From sequence record OM632671.1: DNA of 64,000 nucleotides; one strand, written 5' to 3'. Under the pieces are notes generated by a model. The model was not told the DNA's origin. It saw only the letters and a program-made list of their open reading frames with translations, and did not search any database. The position numbers and the translations under genes were made by a program. Positions 12,401 to 64,000 of this stretch are shown here, piece by piece. How positions within the stretch are numbered: the stretch's first letter is position 1; each line of letters begins with the position of its first letter. Source of the DNA: Escherichia phage BEU50.

Positions 12401-12740
12401 AATCTGTAAAGATAGGGGCTTTATTTAGGTGTTGATTTGCCCAAGCACCATTACCAGCTATTTTAGGTAAAAATTCAATATATTTTCCTGCATAAACAAA
12501 CTGGTTTCCATTAAGATTATATGTACCGTTTTGTAAATAATCGCCATTTTGAGTTACATTACCGTTAATATCCCCACCCTTAGCAAAGCCTAGGCTAATA
12601 ATATTACCGAGGTCATCTTTAGTAAAAAGAGTTCGATCTTTTAAGTTTATCGCTAATTCACCTTCGGCTAATTGTGCTGCAGTAGGATTAACTCCTGCCA
12701 CTTTGCTTCTTTTAAATTGTATCTGTTTTAATGTAGCCAT
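9456..12740 (-). CDS. 37: Long tail fibre distal subunit gp37 (receptor-recognising tip)
   Basis: 1094 aa; C-terminal region with repeated GxHxH histidine boxes as in T4 gp37; synteny 34-35-36-37-38. Confidence 0.9.
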
Positions 12741-12748
12741 AAGTCCTC

Positions 12749-13414
12749 TTAATAATAGCCGAAATCTTGAACAGAATCCTTAATTACGATTTGGTCGAAA
12801 CGAGGAACGTGATTAGCCTCGGATGCCGGATTCTGTGAGAAAAAGTTTGGTGCTGTTAAAGTACCAGTCATGGTATCGCCAGAACGCAATACACGGGAAT
12901 TTGCGTTATCCGTAACAATATTTATTCGTCCATCAACATAATCTTTTCTAGTAAGGTCATTCGCTGCTATAGGAGCAGTAGCGTTAGAACGGACAGGACC
13001 GGTTGCATAAAAACCGCCCTTAGTGCTGATATCACCGGTACGAGTGTTAATAACCACAGTACGTAATGCAGAACCTTGAGAAGATTTAAATCCAATGCCA
13101 TACCATGAAACAATATCAATGTTTGCCATATCATATGTTGCATTGTCTCCGTTGCCTGGGAAAATACCACTTTGATTTGTGTTATTTACGGCATAAGGTA
13201 TTTGCACACCATTATTAAATGTTACTCGAGCGGCATACGTACCACCATTAGCTTTAGAAACGAAATCGTTATCAGCAGCTTGTGGTTTATTATATTCTGA
13301 ATAGAGTTTAAACGTTTTATACAGGACGTCATCACCTGCTGGCATTAAAGGGAAATTACCTTGATGCCATATAACAGCACCGCCAGTTGTACTACCAGCT
13401 TTTAAATCGGCCAT
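12749..13414 (-). CDS. 36: Long tail fibre distal connector gp36
   Basis: 221 aa, same size as T4 gp36; synteny. Confidence 0.85.
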
Positions 13415-28567: not shown

Positions 28568-29218
28568 ATGAGTACAGTTTTTAACACACAACAAGTCGAT
28601 GTTTTGAATGAACCGATGTTCTTTGGTTCTGGTCTTGGCCTCGCACGGTATGATATTCAGCGTCATAAAGTTTTTGAAGAGCTTATCGAAAAGCAGCTCT
28701 CGTTCTTTTGGCGTCCCGAGGAAGTAAACTTGATGTTGGATTCGGCCCAGTTTAATAAGCTTCCACAGTTCCAACAGGACATCTTTACCAACAACCTTAA
28801 GTATCAATCATTATTAGATTCTATCCAAGGTAGAGCACCATCTGCGGTACTTATGTCATTGCTTTCAGACCCTTCATTAGATACATGGGTTGCTACATGG
28901 ACTTTCAGTGAAACTATTCACTCTCGTTCATATACTCATATTATGCGAAATCTTTATACAGATCCATCGAAGGTGTTTGATGAGATTGTATTAGATGAAG
29001 CTATTATGAAGCGTGCCGAATCTATCGGACGATATTATGATGATGTTCTGGTTAAAGCTCGTTATTGGGAAAACGCTAAAGAATTTGTAGAATTAGCTAA
29101 AGAATCTCCTGATGCCGACTTTCGTTTAAACCAAGCTATTAAACAAGAAGCCGAAGCTAAACGTGCTTTAATGAAATCTCTTTACCTCTGTTTGCACGTT
29201 ATTAATGCCTTAGAAGCT
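28568..29218 (+). pseudogene. nrdB: nrdB 5' fragment (ribonucleotide reductase small subunit, truncated after codon 217)
   Basis: MSTVFNTQQVD... through LYLCLHVINALEA matches class Ia R2 up to the conserved NALEA; expected continuation (IRFY...) absent; frame then runs through antisense gene 23 sequence. Confidence 0.75.
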
Positions 29219-29518
29219 AACCATACCCATAACTGCTGGCCCAATCTGGGTTACTGCACCAGAGGTTTGACCTGCTGCGATGTTCTGAGCATTATAACCG
29301 TGGTCACCACCAATTTCAGCTTCGGTCAAGAAAGAACCAAATGCCTGAGCGATTTTCTCGTCTTTATATTCAGGGGATACTTCGAAATCTTTTTCCTGGT
29401 TTTCGAAGATTTTAGCGATAATAGCCTGCTTGCTATTAGCGATTTCCGGCAGGCCTTCACCTTCCAGCAGTTCTTTCCATTTGTCTACGAGCTGAGCTTT
29501 AGTTTTGATAGTAGTCAT
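29219..29518 (-). pseudogene. 23: Major capsid protein gp23 N-terminal fragment (first 100 codons only)
   Basis: MTTIKTKAQLVDKWKELLEGEGLPEIANSKQAIIAKIFENQEKDF...GPAVMGMV matches T4 gp23 residues 1-100, then SF-stop where T4 continues RRAIPNL; no remainder of gene 23 in the window. Confidence 0.8.
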
Positions 29519-29535: not shown

Positions 29536-30348
29536 TTAGAAACGAGATGCGACTTTCGCATATAAACTTACATTAGAATTCTGTTCTACCTGAGTTGTGG
29601 TAGTGTCAACTGCTTCGGCAACAAAATTAAGACCGGCAGCGTCATTGTCAACTGTATTTATACTTTCGGTAATAGCGGCTTCTTCTTTAGTAGAACCTTT
29701 AACCATTTCTACAATAGCAGTTAACTTAGTACCAAATGCGTCAGAATAATCCATACCTTCAACCAGGCCAATAACTTTTTCTTTCTGAGATTCAGTCAGG
29801 TCTTTTACGCTTTCATTAATAGCGGTTTCACGCTGAACGTAATTGATATATGCATCACGTTTGGTAACTTCTTCGAACAATCGAGCGGTTTCTTCTTTAT
29901 GTTCGGCCAGCTCTTCTTCCATTTCTGCTACAACATCTACAGATTCTTCTGGAACAACAACGTTATGTTCAACAAACAGTTCTTTCAGACCACCAAGCAT
30001 GGATTCGAACAAATCAGCTTTAATGCCTTTATCAACTGCGATTTGGTTTTCTGCGAGCCATTCTTTTGCAAGATGGTCTAGGAATTTAGAAGCTTGTTCA
30101 GCCAATTTTTTATCAGCTTTCTCTTCAGCATCTTCTTTAGCCTTTTCAACTTCTTCTTCGGCCTTTTCGGCGATGGCTTTGATATGAGATTCAGCCAGTT
30201 TGACTGCTTCCTGCTTAACGGTGGCTTCGAATACAGTGCTGAAATTAGCTTTAACGTCCGGAGACAGTTCTACTGATTCGAAAACACTATTAAGAGCAAC
30301 TGAAGTCTCGATGTTCTGAGCTTCTTTCAAAAGTTGTTCTTTGATCAT
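29536..30348 (-). CDS. 22: Prohead scaffold protein gp22
   Basis: 270 aa, acidic coiled-coil-rich; synteny upstream of 23. Confidence 0.85.
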   Translation of the reverse strand: MIKEQLLKEAQNIETSVALNSVFESVELSPDVKANFSTVFEATVKQEAVKLAESHIKAIAEKAEEEVEKAKEDAEEKADKKLAEQASKFLDHLAKEWLAENQIAVDKGIKADLFESMLGGLKELFVEHNVVVPEESVDVVAEMEEELAEHKEETARLFEEVTKRDAYINYVQRETAINESVKDLTESQKEKVIGLVEGMDYSDAFGTKLTAIVEMVKGSTKEEAAITESINTVDNDAAGLNFVAEAVDTTTTQVEQNSNVSLYAKVASRF

Positions 30349-30381: not shown

Positions 30382-31023
30382 TTATAATGCTTTTAAACTC
30401 TCTGCGAGAGCTTTAAATGCTTCGTCAGCACTGTTTTTGGTGATTTCCACCGAATTTTCTGATTCTGATATTTGTTTAGGAGTAACCCAAGCATCTGGAG
30501 CAGAAGGTCCCCATACGGCATCTACGCCGACGGTTAATTTAAATCCTTCGTTCACGATACGGTACCCTTTATTGGTGTCGGTTAAAGAACCAAGACCACG
30601 AGAGGAAACACCTGGAATCCAACCAGCTCGTATATTAGCAGCTAATTTATCGCCGGGACCATGGTCGCCTTCAATAATTCTAGCACGTCCATATACATCG
30701 TTTCCTTTCCACCACATATCTTCAATAATGATAGCGGCTTGCATAGGGTCAACATTTGCACGAGGTGGATGGTTTAATTCTCCAAGGGCTTGTTTGGTTG
30801 CGACTTGTTCTTTAATATAGTCACTTACTGCTTTTTCCAAAACGCGTTTAGGATATAAACGTTTATTTCGGTTAACAACCTCTGCCTGAAGAAAAATACC
30901 TTCTATATAAAGCCCTGGTTTTAAGCCAGAATCTTTTCCATCATGAGATTCCAACATTGGAACGCCATCAATAATCTCACCGGGTTGACCCCAAGTTTCA
31001 ATAAGTAACTCGGGTTTATTCAT
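30382..31023 (-). CDS. 21: Prohead protease gp21
   Basis: 213 aa (T4 212 aa); synteny 20-67-68-21-22-23. Confidence 0.9.
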   Translation of the reverse strand: MNKPELLIETWGQPGEIIDGVPMLESHDGKDSGLKPGLYIEGIFLQAEVVNRNKRLYPKRVLEKAVSDYIKEQVATKQALGELNHPPRANVDPMQAAIIIEDMWWKGNDVYGRARIIEGDHGPGDKLAANIRAGWIPGVSSRGLGSLTDTNKGYRIVNEGFKLTVGVDAVWGPSAPDAWVTPKQISESENSVEITKNSADEAFKALAESLKAL

Positions 31024-60089: not shown

Positions 60090-60377
60090 ATGAAAACCTA
60101 TAAAGAATTTATATCACCTGATGCTAACGTTTCTACTCTAACCGAAGCAACCCTTACTTCCGAAGTTATTAAAGCAAATAAAGGACGTGAGGGTAAACCA
60201 ATGATTGGCCTGGTTGACGGCGAAGAAGTAAAAGGTACTGTTTACTTAGGGGATGGATGGTCTGCTAAGAAAGATGGCGCTACTATTGTTATCTCTCCGG
60301 CTGAAGAGACTGCACTGTTTAAAGCTAAGCATATTTCTGTAGCTCAGCTTAAAATTATTGCAAAAACTCTTCTGTAA
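60090..60377 (+). CDS. ipI: Internal protein I-like capsid-targeted protein
   Basis: 95 aa with N-terminal capsid targeting sequence MKTYKEFIS (T4 CTS consensus MKTYQEFIAE); located next to 57B as ipI in T4. Confidence 0.6.
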   Translation: MKTYKEFISPDANVSTLTEATLTSEVIKANKGREGKPMIGLVDGEEVKGTVYLGDGWSAKKDGATIVISPAEETALFKAKHISVAQLKIIAKTLL

Positions 60378-60380
60378 GTA

Positions 60381-60418
60381 GTTTACATGCTGATAGGACT
60401 ATGTTATAGTAGTCCTAT
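60381..60418 (+). promoter_or_regulatory. Early promoter cassette with perfect 10-bp inverted repeat (GATAGGACTA/TAGTCCTATC)
   Basis: GTTTAC 60381-60386, TGtTATAGT 60402-60410 sits in the 8-nt spacer between arms 60393-60402 and 60409-60418. Confidence 0.6.
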
Positions 60419-60447
60419 CAAAACAAATGAGTAAATGGAGAAATAAA

Positions 60448-60633
60448 ATGAAACGCGCTGAACTGATTCGTAATGTTGCTGTAGTAATTGCTTCAATGGC
60501 TTTTAGTTTTTCGATGTTTGTAGGATTCATTTGTGGACTACTGACAACAACAGAAAATTCTATCTCATTGGTAGTAGCATTTCTAATCGGCTTAATCGCT
60601 ATCGTTATGGATAAAATTGCAAAAGGTGAGTAA
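60448..60633 (+). CDS. Small membrane protein (hypothetical)
   Basis: 61 aa from ATG after GGAGAAATAAA RBS; one or two predicted TM helices. Confidence 0.4.
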   Translation: MKRAELIRNVAVVIASMAFSFSMFVGFICGLLTTTENSISLVVAFLIGLIAIVMDKIAKGE

Positions 60634-60634
60634 A

Positions 60635-60997
60635 ATGAAATATCACGTATATGCGGATTTTGAAGCAAATCCTTCTAAAGACCCTGATTGTCGTTTGATA
60701 CGCAGACCATTTGATTCAGCAGCTCAAGCATGGGCTTGGATTAAAACTTGTACTCCTTCTTACACTTTCTTTGAAGTGGTAGACGATAACGGTGTTCTGC
60801 ATCCAGAACCTACAGAAACTATTAATTTCCTTCTGTTTGCTGGTTACGACTGTTATCCTCTTGGCGGTATTGATGATCTTGTTGCTACAGGAAAAACTGT
60901 TGAAGCTCTTCGCGAAATTTATAAAAACGCGGAAGAAAATTTTGACTGGTATCATATTGTTGATGCTCATACCTTTGAAATGGTGGAACATTCATGA
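60635..60997 (+). CDS. Hypothetical protein
   Basis: 120-aa ORF from ATG 60635 (GGTGAGTAAAATG). Confidence 0.45.
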   Translation: MKYHVYADFEANPSKDPDCRLIRRPFDSAAQAWAWIKTCTPSYTFFEVVDDNGVLHPEPTETINFLLFAGYDCYPLGGIDDLVATGKTVEALREIYKNAEENFDWYHIVDAHTFEMVEHS

Positions 60998-61288: not shown

Positions 61289-61804
61289 ATGAATATTTGT
61301 TTAGGCAGTACAATTCCTAAGGGTTACGTAATTGATGTCACTACTTGGGAAAATGACGGCGACAACTATAAAACCAAAACATTATTTGGTGTGGAAGAGC
61401 ATGAGCTCCAACAGTTTAAATATCTCTTGAAGAAATTTAAGAGTCGTCATTCCAGCACTAAAGCTGAACGTTACTGTGGTAATACACCATTCAGTGATTG
61501 CTCGCTTTTAATCTATGAATACTTGGTTGAAGGGCTGTTCTCAGACCAGCTTTATCCAGAATTCATTAAAAAGGTCTTTGATATTGAAGTCGACCTTGGT
61601 AATAAATCTGAAGAAGACGAATCGCGTGTATTCGACCTGTTCCATGAGAATGGATATTTGGTATCAGAAGGTCTCATTGATATTCTTGGTCATGCTTCTG
61701 AATATTATGATTATGATTTCTTGCGTGTAGTTGAATGTGTTGAATTTGCTTATATTGAAGAAGAAATCGTTTTGCCAACTGTTAAAATGATTGATTTGCT
61801 TTAA
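61289..61804 (+). CDS. Hypothetical protein
   Basis: 171-aa acidic ORF. Confidence 0.5.
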   Translation: MNICLGSTIPKGYVIDVTTWENDGDNYKTKTLFGVEEHELQQFKYLLKKFKSRHSSTKAERYCGNTPFSDCSLLIYEYLVEGLFSDQLYPEFIKKVFDIEVDLGNKSEEDESRVFDLFHENGYLVSEGLIDILGHASEYYDYDFLRVVECVEFAYIEEEIVLPTVKMIDLL

Positions 61805-61883
61805 GAATTATGTGTTATTATTAATTCGTACCCTCTATTACCAAAGGTGCTCTAAAGTGCCTTTCATAATAGAAAGTTATTTA

Positions 61884-61957
61884 GGCCCTGTAGCTCAATG
61901 GTTAGCAGCAGTCCCCTCATAAGGGAAAGGTTACCAGTTCGAATCTGGTCTGGGTCA
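61884..61957 (+). tRNA. tRNA with CAU anticodon (Ile2-type lysidine tRNA or Met)
   Basis: Manual fold: acceptor GGCCCTG/CTGGGTC (one mismatch), D-arm GCTC, anticodon loop CTCATAA, T-arm ACCAG-TTCGAAT-CTGGT; 5' end resembles bacterial tRNA-Ile2; CCA not encoded. Confidence 0.6.
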
Positions 61958-61963
61958 TATATT

Positions 61964-62040
61964 CGAGGCATAGCTCAATTGTATGGAGCAACGGACTTCT
62001 AATCCGTAGGTTGAAGGTTAGAATCCTTCTGTCTCGACCA
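61964..62040 (+). tRNA. tRNA-Arg (anticodon UCU)
   Basis: Manual fold: acceptor CGAGGCA/TGTCTCG, D-stem GCTC/GAGC, anticodon stem ACGGA/TCCGT with loop CTTCTAA, T-arm GAAGG-TTAGAAT-CCTTC, encoded CCA. Confidence 0.75.
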
Positions 62041-62058
62041 ACTTTAAGTGAGGAAAAT

Positions 62059-62403
62059 ATGAAAGGCAATATTTATCTGGTAGTTCATGATTTAACGTTT
62101 TATTTTAACGAATATGATACAGTTATTTCTCATCGATTGATTAATTCGCTGTATCAGCATGCCGATTACATTTATGTTCAAAATGAATTTGGACATTGGA
62201 AGTTCATTAAAAATCGTTACGGGTTAACTAGTTTTGAATACTTTGACCGTAAAGACCTTTTAAACGAAATCCCATTGCAACATCGATTCCAGAAACGCGA
62301 ATCATTATATTATTGCCGTCATATACCAAACGCCGAATGTGTTAATGAAGCGATTAATCTATGGCGTCGGCGTCGAGAGCAAATTGATGATATGCCAAAA
62401 TAA
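62059..62403 (+). CDS. Hypothetical protein
   Basis: 114-aa ORF from ATG 62059 (GAGGAAAATATG) just after tRNA-Arg. Confidence 0.5.
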   Translation: MKGNIYLVVHDLTFYFNEYDTVISHRLINSLYQHADYIYVQNEFGHWKFIKNRYGLTSFEYFDRKDLLNEIPLQHRFQKRESLYYCRHIPNAECVNEAINLWRRRREQIDDMPK

Positions 62404-62700
62404 GAAGCCGGGTCGCTACCGGTAAGTCGTCGGACTGATGTTCCCTGAGTAAGGACTGGTCTTAATAAATCTTTACGATTTGTTAATATCCCCTTACATC
62501 ACAGCAGAAACGGCGCACAGAATTATCGATTCGAGGAAATATCTTTGCCGTAAGCCGAGTAGCGTTTTTGACGGAACGTTCGGATATGGTCGAGATATGG
62601 CCTTTTAAAAATATTGAGTAGCGTCAACTGCTTAATAACCGGGTTCGAATCCCGGCGTTTCGTACAAACACTTGCCTTAGCAGGTGGAAACCCCGACAAG
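62404..62700 (+). ncRNA. Putative small stable RNA region with tRNA-like 3' module (compare T4 species 1/2 RNAs, rnaC/rnaD)
   Basis: Non-coding stretch containing a perfect T-arm CCGGG-TTCGAAT-CCCGG (62639-62655) and an acceptor-like pairing CGGAACG/CGTTTCG, but no canonical D or anticodon arm. Confidence 0.3.
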
Positions 62701-62715
62701 GTTGCCGCAAGGCTT

Positions 62716-62744
62716 AGCCCCTTCCGAAAGGTTGGGGCTTTTTG
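62716..62744 (+). terminator. Intrinsic terminator (AGCCCC-UU-CC-GAAA-GG-UU-GGGGCU plus T-run)
   Basis: Hairpin with GNRA loop followed by TTTTT; near-identical copy at 63259-63287. Confidence 0.55.
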
Positions 62745-62788
62745 GCATAATAATAAATAGATAAGTTAATTAACTTAGGAAAAGCAAC

Positions 62789-63253
62789 ATGAAATCATAC
62801 GCTGAATTTTTGACTGAACAATCTAGTTCAGATGTAAAAGCCGCTGCGATTGCAGCAATTCAAGCAGGTAAATATTCTTACAAAGACGCCTCTGATGAAG
62901 AACGTTTCCGTTTTATTAGAGATTTTAAAGCCGAAGGTTTTACTAATGCTAATACTGTTAGCCGAGTTTTTAAAAGCCTAGCTGCATCAGGTGAATTGTT
63001 CCAGAAAGCTACAGGTAAAGCACCTGCGCCAAAAGCGGACCCTAAAGCAGCTCAAGAAAAAAATATCGCCAAAGGAATTATTTCTAAGTATGAAGCAATT
63101 CTTAAAGAGCTTTTAGTAATCAAAACAGAAGGACAGAAACTGGCACGAGCACATAGCTTCAAAGATAATCCTCACGCTCATAGCCTTGAGTATGTTGAAG
63201 ATATCCAAAAACTTATTAAAGACCGTATCTGGTCTGCTAAACAAATTAAATAA
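62789..63253 (+). CDS. Putative capsid-targeted internal protein (CTS-bearing)
   Basis: 154 aa beginning MKSYAEFLTEQ, matching the T4 internal-protein capsid targeting sequence and gp21 cleavage motif L-x-E; lysine/alanine-rich. Confidence 0.5.
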   Translation: MKSYAEFLTEQSSSDVKAAAIAAIQAGKYSYKDASDEERFRFIRDFKAEGFTNANTVSRVFKSLAASGELFQKATGKAPAPKADPKAAQEKNIAKGIISKYEAILKELLVIKTEGQKLARAHSFKDNPHAHSLEYVEDIQKLIKDRIWSAKQIK

Positions 63254-63258
63254 TAGAA

Positions 63259-63287
63259 TGCCCCTTCCTTATGGTTGGGGCTTTTTG
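63259..63287 (+). terminator. Intrinsic terminator (second copy of the GCCCCTTCC...GGTTGGGGC hairpin plus T-run)
   Basis: GCCCCTTCCTTATGGTTGGGGCTTTTT; direct repeat of 62716-62744. Confidence 0.55.
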
Positions 63288-63319
63288 GCATCTAGGGCAT
63301 AAAAATATTTCATAAAGAT

Positions 63320-63349
63320 GTTTACTTCTTCTAAGGACATGATACTATA
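63320..63349 (+). promoter_or_regulatory. Early promoter cassette (GTTTAC, TGATACTAT)
   Basis: GTTTAC 63320-63325, -10 63344-63349; leader GACTTATCAACCACAGAGGAG repeated at 63721-63745. Confidence 0.55.
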
Positions 63350-63376
63350 GACTTATCAACCACAGAGGAGAATATT

Positions 63377-63682
63377 ATGAGTCTTTACACTGAACTGAAT
63401 AAAAAATCTGAAGAATCTGCTGAAACTATTTTTAAAAACGTGCAAAAGCGTATTTTAGAAAAGATGTATAACACTGCAGCTAAAGGTGAAAAATCTTGCC
63501 GGTTCCCGATGAGGTGTTCTTCCGATTTATGCGCAAATACTATTGAATGGCTGGAAAGTGAAGGTCTTACGGTAGAGAAAAACCCGGCGATTTCTATTGA
63601 CAGTGAATCATATATTAGTATTTCTTGGGATAAACCACGTATGAATGAAGGACACTACAAGTTGTTAAGTTGGAAAAATTAA
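63377..63682 (+). CDS. Hypothetical protein
   Basis: 101-aa ORF downstream of promoter cassette. Confidence 0.5.
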   Translation: MSLYTELNKKSEESAETIFKNVQKRILEKMYNTAAKGEKSCRFPMRCSSDLCANTIEWLESEGLTVEKNPAISIDSESYISISWDKPRMNEGHYKLLSWKN

Positions 63683-63690
63683 AAATAATG

Positions 63691-63720
63691 ATGTACAAGC
63701 ACCAAGGATGGTGATACTAT
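63691..63720 (+). promoter_or_regulatory. Early promoter cassette (ATGTAC, TGATACTAT)
   Basis: -10 TACTAT 63715-63720 with upstream TG; leader shared with 63350-63375. Confidence 0.5.
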
Positions 63721-63750
63721 AGACTTATCAACTACAGAGGAGTAAACAAA

Positions 63751-63915
63751 ATGACTACTTTAATTATTTGGTTCGATGAAAATGAAGAAACATACTGTGT
63801 GAATATTGGTGAAAGTCCAATGCCTGAATTTGAATCCTCAGATAAAAACTCTGTTGTATCTTGGGCTGAAGGTTATAAAGCAGCTAAAGGTGACGTTGAA
63901 ATAATTTACATCTAA
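63751..63915 (+). CDS. Hypothetical small protein
   Basis: 54-aa ORF (MTTLIIWFDENEETY...) below the ORF-track size cut-off, with GAGGAGTAAACAAAATG start context. Confidence 0.35.
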   Translation: MTTLIIWFDENEETYCVNIGESPMPEFESSDKNSVVSWAEGYKAAKGDVEIIYI

Positions 63916-63927
63916 GTAAGTTTATGT

Positions 63928-63948
63928 TATAGTAGTCCTATCAAATCA
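63928..63948 (+). promoter_or_regulatory. Early promoter -10 plus shared leader (TGtTATAGTAGTCCTATCAAA)
   Basis: Same TATAGTAGTCCTATCA module as at 1993-2008, 2505-2520 and 60405-60420. Confidence 0.45.
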
Positions 63949-63961
63949 AGAGGAAAACAAA

Positions 63962-64000
63962 ATGGCTAAAGTTAGTATTGATGTCGTTGATTATGAATAC
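63962..64000 (+). CDS. Hypothetical protein, 5' end only (window edge)
   Basis: ATG 63962 with GAGGAAAACAAAATG context; ORF runs off the window. Confidence 0.3.
   Translation, partial: MAKVSIDVVDYEY

Follow-up and report, generated by a model that had tools for sequence, protein, structure and literature searches.

The stretch of Escherichia phage BEU50 DNA analyzed here (sequence record OM632671.1; 64,000 nucleotides, in the following called the window) is that of an RB69-like Mosigvirus. It harbors on its plus strand, at positions 62789..63253, an open reading frame (ORF) for a protein of 154 residues that starts MKSYAEFLTEQ. The coordinates and this N-terminus, both put forward in a first-pass annotation of the sequence, were confirmed by translation of the frame. 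The ORF probably codes for an internal head protein (Ip) of this RB69-like T-even phage, and the most plausible task of the protein would be to neutralize an early host defense. The ORF belongs to a known class, the T-even internal proteins that reside in shuffled terminator/promoter cassettes; proteins of this class are small and basic, are packaged in the head, and enter the host together with the DNA. What looks new is its family, which has been labeled as hypothetical only, is unrelated to IPI, IPII, IPIII, and IpIV-VI of phage PST, and is located after the RNA gene rnaC. Over positions 62400-63400, the sequence shares 100% identity with Escherichia phage a20 and 97-99% identity with many genomes of Mosigvirus (RB69-like) phages.

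An internal protein is supported most strongly by the comparison, at the level of sequence, of the same slot after rnaC in different phages. A pattern scan of IMG/VR with the 3′ end of rnaC returned five loci, and the census of the slot comprises a handful of genomes plus BLAST counts. After rnaC, zero (T4), one (the window and RB69), or two unrelated genes carrying a capsid targeting sequence (CTS) are present, each ending in a hairpin. The T4 slot consists of one hairpin (GCCCCGACCGAAAGGTTGGGGCTTTTT), followed directly by GGTATCTAAGCC... and e.8, and contains no CTS gene. In the Tequatrovirus phages slur03 and fD1, the hairpin is followed by TATAAATA, an orthologue of 157 residues (74% identical, MKSYAQFLNEAVLNEA...), a second hairpin, and the same GGTATCTAGGCC... 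exit. Two tandem modules occur in vB_VIPECOOM01 and in IMG/VR contig L008, and the second of them encodes an unrelated protein of 187 residues starting MKTYAEFLTEA. phiE142 (L010) has the first module and then the leader of the second, where the locus sequence ends, and RB69 has the second module only, joined directly to the first hairpin. RB69ORF149c likewise starts MKTYAEFLTEA, and the first and second cargo types share residues 1-10 only, as judged by BLASTP. A third cargo type, MYTVNEFLAETEIITEA..., starting MYTVNEFLAE, is present in a metagenomic Mosigvirus-like contig (L011). Klebsiella phage RCIP0032 shows a hairpin, TATAAATA, and then MKFKEFLAEA...; residues 3-68 of the Klebsiella-phage protein are 59% identical to the N-domain of the ORF product, and its C-terminal half is different. 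A shared leader on unrelated cargo is the defining trait of ip genes. In the seven genomes compared, every joint created by gain or loss lies at the GGGGCTTTTT end of the hairpin, from which we deduced that the slot is a hyperplastic site that takes modules made up of a late promoter, a CTS gene, and a terminator. Unrelated cargo with the same 10-residue leader occupies the same slot in other phages. Because presence and absence of the gene coincide exactly with the hairpins, the first-pass annotation was right in calling the arrangement cassette-like and the locus hyperplastic. Gain and loss of cassettes at the hairpin repeats is thus documented by comparison of sequences; that it proceeds by recombination within these repeats we infer by analogy with work on PeSL cassettes.

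Some loci showed additional features. In contig L011 (IMG/VR 3300030021_000002, 12437-13058), the leader MYTVNEFLAETEIITEA is accompanied by a long histone-H1-like Pro/Lys/Ala linker; the C-terminal part of this cargo has a DTPDLY motif in common with the Klebsiella-phage protein. The cargo gene is apparently split by a frameshift in the contig. In the RB69 reference (NC_004928, 5429-5991, minus strand), RB69ORF149c and ORF148c together represent one CTS gene for 187 residues, which is intact in Tequatrovirus phages such as vB_VIPECOOM01 and in RB14ORF136. The frameshift that separates them in RB69 indicates either a pseudogene or a sequencing error in this second putative internal-protein gene. 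The Logan assembly protein P0010 (94 residues) combines a tRNA.3-like N-terminal part (compare window positions 60617-60997) with the last 32 residues of the ORF family. This chimera implies that in some phage a deletion of about 2.3 kb removed tRNAs, rnaD/rnaC, and most of the ORF.

The first 10 codons of the gene (62789..62818, plus strand), MKSYAEFLTE, are predicted to encode a CTS, or propeptide, that would be cut by gp21 after Glu10. This prediction is based on alignment, on composition, on the gp23 maturation site, and on a review of the T4 CTS (PMC9026906). As related in that review, the first 10 residues of the T4 CTS suffice for packaging (Mullaney and Black), with residues 4 and 7 as the main determinants of targeting and residues 8 and 10 as those of processing. 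The N-terminus of T4 IPII and IPIII reads MKTYQEFIAE/A, the slash denoting the cut. The ORF has Tyr4, Phe7, Leu8, and Glu10, i.e. all four experimentally mapped CTS positions, in keeping with the claim in the first-pass annotation that its N-terminus resembles the T4 internal-protein CTS. In an alignment of six family members with 78-99% overall identity, Met1, Lys2, Tyr4, Phe7, and Glu10 were invariant, and more distant members (48-60% identity) retained [YF]xEFLxE. The leaders of IPII orthologues are MKTYNEFLTEA and MKSYNEFITEA; Ser3, Leu8, and Thr9 of the ORF therefore fall within natural CTS variation. A start matching MK.[YF].[EQ]F was found in only 2 of the 717 ATG-started frames of at least 30 residues in the window, namely ipI and ORF 62789-63253. 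With a bona fide IPI gene as the only other match in the window, the resemblance is no chance match.

The window also offers the machinery for processing. Its gp23 has the N-terminal sequence ...AFGSFLTE/AEIGGDHGY, in which FLTE occupies positions P4-P1 of the maturation site; we take this site to correspond to the classical T4 gp23 maturation cut after Glu65. FLTE is identical in the ORF leader and in the gp23 site, and the gp21 protease is thus offered the same F-L-T-E in both. The gene for the gp21 prohead protease (30382..31023, minus strand; Pfam Peptidase_S77, E=2.8e-107), which is predicted to remove the CTS in trans, the gp22 scaffold gene (29536-30348; Pfam T4_CASP, E=1.4e-89), and a gp67 gene (GP67, E=1.7e-19) are all present. 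In an AlphaFold2 model of the protein, residues 1-9 have a pLDDT below 50, fitting a flexible propeptide.

The hairpins bordering the gene are near-identical. Copy 1 (T1), GCCCCTTCC-GAAA-GGTTGGGGCTTTTTGGCAT, at 62717..62748 on the plus strand, is the terminator of the tRNA/rnaD/rnaC unit and the left boundary of the cassette; copy 2 (T2), GCCCCTTCC-TTAT-GGTTGGGGCTTTTTGGCAT, at 63260..63291 on the same strand, is the terminator of the cassette and its right boundary. The two are identical at 29 of 32 nt, and all three differences lie within the tetraloop (GAAA versus TTAT). The direct terminator repeat noted in the first-pass annotation is therefore real, but the unit measures 32 nt instead of 34 nt, and the first copy had been placed one base off. 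When the whole window was searched with up to three mismatches, T1 and T2 were the only copies, compared with 0.00 expected from 100 shuffles. Both hairpins fold into five G-C pairs, a 2x2 T.T internal loop, two G-C pairs, and the tetraloop, followed by U5, with free energies of -17.7 (T1) and -16.8 kcal/mol (T2); the folding z-scores of 46-nt pieces were modest (-2.3 and -1.4). Neither copy was detected by a simple terminator scan of the window, which is due to the internal loop. The downstream copy in phage SA79RD is annotated as a rho-independent terminator (WebGeSTer and TransTermHP). A T1-type hairpin is also located 3′ of rnaC in T4, RB69, slur03, fD1, and VIPECOOM01, and the tail of T2, GGCATCTAGG, runs into the sequence that directly follows the single T4 hairpin.

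A lineage-specific stem variant is common to both hairpin copies of a genome. In Mosigvirus, both copies (62717-62741 and 63260-63284 in the window) contain TT, which results in the T.T mismatches, whereas the corresponding stem is GA and fully paired in Tequatrovirus. Sharing of these variants within a genome suggests ongoing exchange between the two copies. In SA79RD and ATK47, the tail of the second hairpin differs (GGGGCCTTTTGGTAT). The copies are thus more alike in the window than in these close relatives, which hints at gene conversion.

The gene is preceded by a late-promoter-like motif, AATAAATA (62752..62759, plus strand), which was found by motif scan 30 nt before the ATG, and by a Shine-Dalgarno sequence, AGGA, read from the sequence 8 nt before the ATG (62777..62780, plus strand). 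Six of the late structural genes listed for the window have a TATAAATA motif 21-33 nt before them, and a perfect TATAAATA occupies the equivalent place in the Tequatrovirus and Klebsiella-phage orthologues. In most of five T4-like genomes, among them RB69, position -13 shows little conservation of its T, with A or T being common (Nolan et al., PMC1524935). An early promoter was sought between T1 and the ATG and was not found; AATAAATA is the sole promoter-like element there. The downstream genes at 63377 and 63751 have early-type promoters of their own. With only a late-type motif between T1 and the ATG and early promoters downstream, the ORF is deduced to form a late island among early genes, and it would be expressed late, as a prohead component must be.

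The predicted mature protein (62819..63253, plus strand, including the stop codon) was characterized by composition, model, and dN/dS. It comprises 144 residues with a mass of 15.9 kDa and a pI of 9.6. The exact pI of 9.61, a Lys content of 13.9%, and a net charge of +8 bring it very close to T4 IPI*, IPII*, and IPIII* (pI 9.0-9.65, 13.2-15.6% Lys). The AlphaFold2 model (mean pLDDT 75) consists of four parts, i.e. the disordered leader, an N-domain set as residues 11-71 with three helices (13-25, 36-48, and 54-67), a disordered Lys/Pro/Ala linker (about 72-84), and a long C-terminal helical hairpin (85-151). For composition and dN/dS, the segments 11-71, 72-92, and 93-154 were used. The linker, KATGKAPAPKADPKAAQEK, contains 24% Lys. 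Relative to the Tequatrovirus orthologues, dN/dS of the C-domain was 0.02-0.03 at a dS of about 1-1.5, and dN of the N-domain was 8-fold above that of the C-domain, with synonymous sites saturated. These substitution rates mark the ORF as a genuine gene that is under selection and whose N-terminal module evolves fast.

Scans of the protein against Pfam, NCBIfam, and PADLOC yielded no significant family, and Pfam at E<=1 gave only chance matches. A profile search against PDB sequences returned nothing below E=0.7, and no solved fold was matched. An exhaustive HMMER search of 1.84 billion representatives retrieved eight clusters, all of them T4-like phage proteins or fragments. The homology and structure searches proposed in the first-pass annotation thus revealed homologues in T4-like phages, but no named Ip, Pfam family, or solved fold. 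The ORF matched PHROG 2280 from end to end (E=1e-53). The RB69ORF149c-type cargo of vB_VIPECOOM01 is assigned to the same PHROG, though by BLASTP only the 10-residue leader is shared; no function or category is attached to it. BLASTP alignments to IPII and IPIII were limited to the leader region. Homology of the N-domain to T4 IPII, as suggested by BLASTP (E=0.002), was rejected, as hhalign of the CTS-trimmed sequence against the IPII family PF26874 gave a probability of 2%. That the family is the IpIV of phage PST, likewise 157 residues long, was also rejected, since the sequences are unrelated, and homology to the PST IpIV, IpV, and IpVI sequences compared was not found. T4 e.7 and e.8, located at the equivalent position in T4, were rejected as homologues by inspection.

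The family is represented in 511 matching phage records across Mosigvirus and Tequatrovirus, and the N-domain occurs in Klebsiella phages as well. Among these 511 records and the family's four protein clusters, all records listed and all cluster members read are annotated as hypothetical. None of them carries an Ip label; a prior listing in Repoila 1994 or Comeau 2007 is possible. The sequence of the ORF is absent from the supplements of the Silas 2025 paper, and a literature search for RB32ORF133c found nothing. The orthologue in the Tequatrovirus Yersinia phage fD1, g140 (67942-68415, 157 residues), is flagged PPAP in Table S3 of PMC8309999, i.e. it was found by LC-MS/MS in purified virions. 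That study used virions purified by ultracentrifugation and required two or more peptides as well as a mean spectral count of 2 or higher (PMC8309999). Residence in the head, as foreseen in the first-pass annotation, is thereby partly shown, for the virion-associated orthologue fD1 g140.

CTS-bearing ip genes with flanking repeated promoter/terminator elements were described in T-even phages by Repoila et al. 1994 (as cited in PMC2839356 and PMC12373910). Arbiol et al. noted over 30 IP variants, and two ip loci are recognized in the literature (PMC2839356). Each of Ip1, Ip2, and Ip3 blocks a GmrSD type IV restriction enzyme of its own (Silas et al. 2025, PMC12373910). The ORF resembles the genes for T4 IPI-III in its 10-residue leader with Tyr4, Phe7, an aliphatic residue 8, and Glu10, in its small, basic, Lys-rich mature product, in being non-essential and variably present, and in its late-type promoter motif, its own terminator, the phage subfamily, and the protease/scaffold machinery. 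It differs from them in a mature part without similarity in sequence or fold (IPI_T4 and PF26874 are unmatched), in Gln at P1′, and in its location after rnaC rather than in the 57B-ipI or ipII/ipIII-e locus. The polymorphic ip genes (Ip4-Ip13 and later; PST IpIV-VI; Ip7 of RB15/K3/ATK47) are, as here, unrelated ORFs linked by the CTS, are flanked by repeated regulatory elements (in ATK47, 'flanked by 43 bp direct repeat'), and vary between close relatives. The ORF family is, however, non-homologous to PST IpIV, IpV, and IpVI, and its flanking repeat is a G+C-rich copy of the rnaC terminator, whereas the IP elements are based on T4 early promoters and have weaker AT-rich stem-loops (PMC2839356).

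The promoter-early stem-loop (PeSL) cassettes known from RB49/phi1 and further T4-like phages (Arbiol et al. 2010; Comeau et al. 2014) also hold a single accessory ORF between repeated stem-loop terminators, show indels between relatives at the repeats, and form transcriptionally insulated modules with their own promoter and terminator. Recombination between the flanking stem-loop elements, including excised mini-circles, was demonstrated experimentally in RB49/phi1 (PMC2839356). The repeat of the cassette described here consists of a stem-loop and T-run only, whereas the PeSL repeat additionally has a strong sigma-70-like early promoter; here, a late (gp55-type) promoter motif is placed outside the repeat.

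Taken as an internal head protein, the ORF product would have the following course of action. The gene would be transcribed late, as motif and position suggest, and the (A/T)ATAAATA promoter used would be the one immediately behind the rnaC terminator. MKSYAEFLTE would then act as CTS and take the protein into the prohead scaffolding core in analogy with T4 IPIII, in line with the conserved determinants and the swapping of cargo in the same slot. The gp21 protease would cut after Glu10, where it meets the same F-L-T-E that precedes the gp23 maturation cut. The basic, Lys-rich product of 144 residues would stay in the head with the DNA and, by analogy, be ejected with it into the cell. Once injected, it may neutralize an early-acting host defense, possibly a type IV enzyme, as Ip1-3 do, and the fast-evolving, exchangeable N-domain may set the specificity. 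As the comparison of genomes shows, the gene forms a self-contained module of late promoter, CTS gene, and terminator, the 3′ hairpin of which duplicates the resident rnaC terminator, and recombination within the short hairpin repeats would add, remove, or swap modules. We further propose, tentatively and as something rather less than probable, that PHROG 2280 is a modular injected superfamily with a CTS, an exchangeable N-domain of ~60 residues, a Lys/Pro/Ala linker, and an exchangeable helical C-domain. The N-domain would pick the defense that is disarmed (e.g. type IV enzymes acting on glucosyl- or arabinosyl-hydroxymethylcytosine DNA), and the duplicated rnaC terminator would be the recombination site by which zero, one, or two effectors are collected.

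Several observations weigh against an internal protein with an anti-defense role. Behind the predicted cut, the P1′ residue is Gln in the Mosigvirus allele, compared with Ala or Gly in other alleles, the T4 Ips, and gp23. The promoter motif of the window is AATAAATA and not the T4 consensus, and the post-rnaC locus is neither of the two recognized ip loci (PMC2839356). The virion evidence comes from the orthologue fD1 g140 and not from the phage of the window. Moreover, the fD1 PPAP list comprises 113 proteins, including clearly non-structural ones such as rI (PMC8309999); with such an over-inclusive list the specificity is modest, and detection of g140 is supportive, not conclusive. Finally, neither an Ip of known function nor a solved fold nor any model of Pfam, NCBIfam, or PADLOC was matched by the mature protein, so that the anti-defense role, for which the ORF was named as no more than a candidate in the first-pass annotation, is suggested by analogy only.

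That over-inclusive proteome would also suit a different explanation, namely that the ORF encodes an accessory protein that is not packaged, that its CTS likeness stems from ancestry or recombination with an ip gene, and that its detection in fD1 reflects carry-over contamination. The atypical Gln at P1′, the early accessory genes that are its downstream neighbors, and the label "hypothetical protein" in all database entries read would agree with this. Nevertheless, we regard it as highly improbable, given that residues for targeting and processing do not vary among alleles differing at 20-50% of other positions, that the sole promoter element from T1 to the ATG is of the late type and corresponds to a perfect TATAAATA in orthologues, that three further cargo types of the slot carry the same leader, and that the composition of the ORF product fits known Ips. 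It is likewise very unlikely that the duplicated hairpins are two independent, similar terminators that have no part in gene mobility. G+C-rich hairpins with a T-run are common as terminators, and the folding z-scores are modest; but zero chance matches are expected for a 28-of-32 pattern, the joints coincide with the GGGGCTTTTT hairpin end in all cases of gain or loss in the seven genomes, and the lineage-specific stem variants (TT in Mosigvirus, GA in Tequatrovirus) appear in both copies of a genome. In addition, stem-loop recombination with mini-circles is known experimentally in RB49/phi1 (PMC2839356).

A packaged internal protein might alternatively have a physical job, such as neutralization of DNA charge, condensation, or exit, without any specific host target. 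The net charge of +8 and 13.9% Lys of the mature protein, the 24% Lys of its linker, the long histone-H1-like linker PKAKPEPKPEVKATPKAP of the related L011 cassette, and the very strong purifying selection on the C-domain are compatible with such a role, and solid-state nuclear magnetic resonance has shown contacts between DNA phosphates and the Lys residues of T4 internal proteins (PMC3012670). We consider a purely physical role unlikely, as T4 has no gene in the slot and unrelated cargo can replace the gene elsewhere, from which it follows that the ORF cannot be needed for packaging. Furthermore, the N-domain has an 8 times faster dN and has been shuffled among phage genera, as is typical of arms-race proteins, and the T4 Ips, long taken for fillers associated with the DNA, proved to be specific inhibitors of GmrSD, all three of them (PMC12373910).

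An internal protein that would act against host defense remains our preferred explanation, and the surroundings of its gene were recorded as well. Genes are arranged in the order gp3, gp1, 57A, 57B, and ipI (60090-60377; Pfam IPI_T4, PF11634, E=1e-49), followed by homologues of tRNA.4, tRNA.3, and tRNA.2 together with one ORF, and then by tRNA-Met, tRNA-Arg, one small ORF, the rnaD-like and rnaC RNAs (62406-62664), ORF 62789-63253, and small early genes. The distance between ORF 62789-63253 and ipI is about 2.4 kb. The rnaD-like small stable RNA, with approximate ends at 62406..62524 (plus strand), was placed by alignment to T4 and RB69 and by the T4 annotation; it is an upstream neighbor in a shared transcription unit. 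The rnaC (species 1 RNA) homologue, just downstream of which the cassette is inserted, spans 62526..62664 (plus strand); it is supported by the ATK47 annotation at the equivalent position, and both ends agree with T4 rnaC. Mean column identity of the rnaD-rnaC stretch was 95% across the window, T4, and RB69. An Rfam scan of 61500-64000 detected two tRNAs only and no model matching rnaC or rnaD, and rnaD is without annotation in the Mosigvirus records seen.

Downstream of T2, an early-type promoter (GTTTAC, 17 nt, TACTAT; 63320..63348, plus strand) was read from the sequence. It serves an unrelated early gene (63377-63682) and marks the end of the late cassette; the gene at 63751 is preceded by a similar element. 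Another early-type promoter (TTTACA, 17 nt, TATAGT) is found at both 60382-60420 and 63905-63933. At 60382-60420, directly after ipI, it overlaps a strong stem-loop, GATAGGACTA...TAGTCCTATC (-18 kcal/mol, z=-5.2), forming a composite promoter/stem-loop of the type described for ip loci and PeSLs. TAGTCCTATC is also contained in 63905-63933.

A breakpoint was noticed at 29205-29219. The nrdB homology (plus strand, from 28556) ends after about codon 216, and the gp23 major capsid gene, which runs on the minus strand from 29518 to 29210, breaks off after about codon 100 and is joined tail to tail with nrdB. The join is spanned by none of 742 matching phage records, and its halves match separate places in every record listed. 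By T4 gene order it would presumably take out the block located at roughly 103-137 kb. The join has the appearance of an assembly chimera or of a large deletion, not of a viable arrangement.

The concepts of the field are unchanged by these results, and they will not surprise a T4 specialist. The locus offers a clear case from nature of cargo cassettes that are bounded by terminators and expressed late. The family includes many therapeutic-candidate coliphages. A correct label would improve annotation, and the relabeled family would provide a short testable list for host-range engineering. As all three T4 Ips inhibit GmrSD enzymes, each further CTS-bearing family is a ready-made candidate anti-defense effector, and such effectors would reach the host before any phage gene is expressed. 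The family described here thus represents a widely distributed, directly testable anti-defense candidate.

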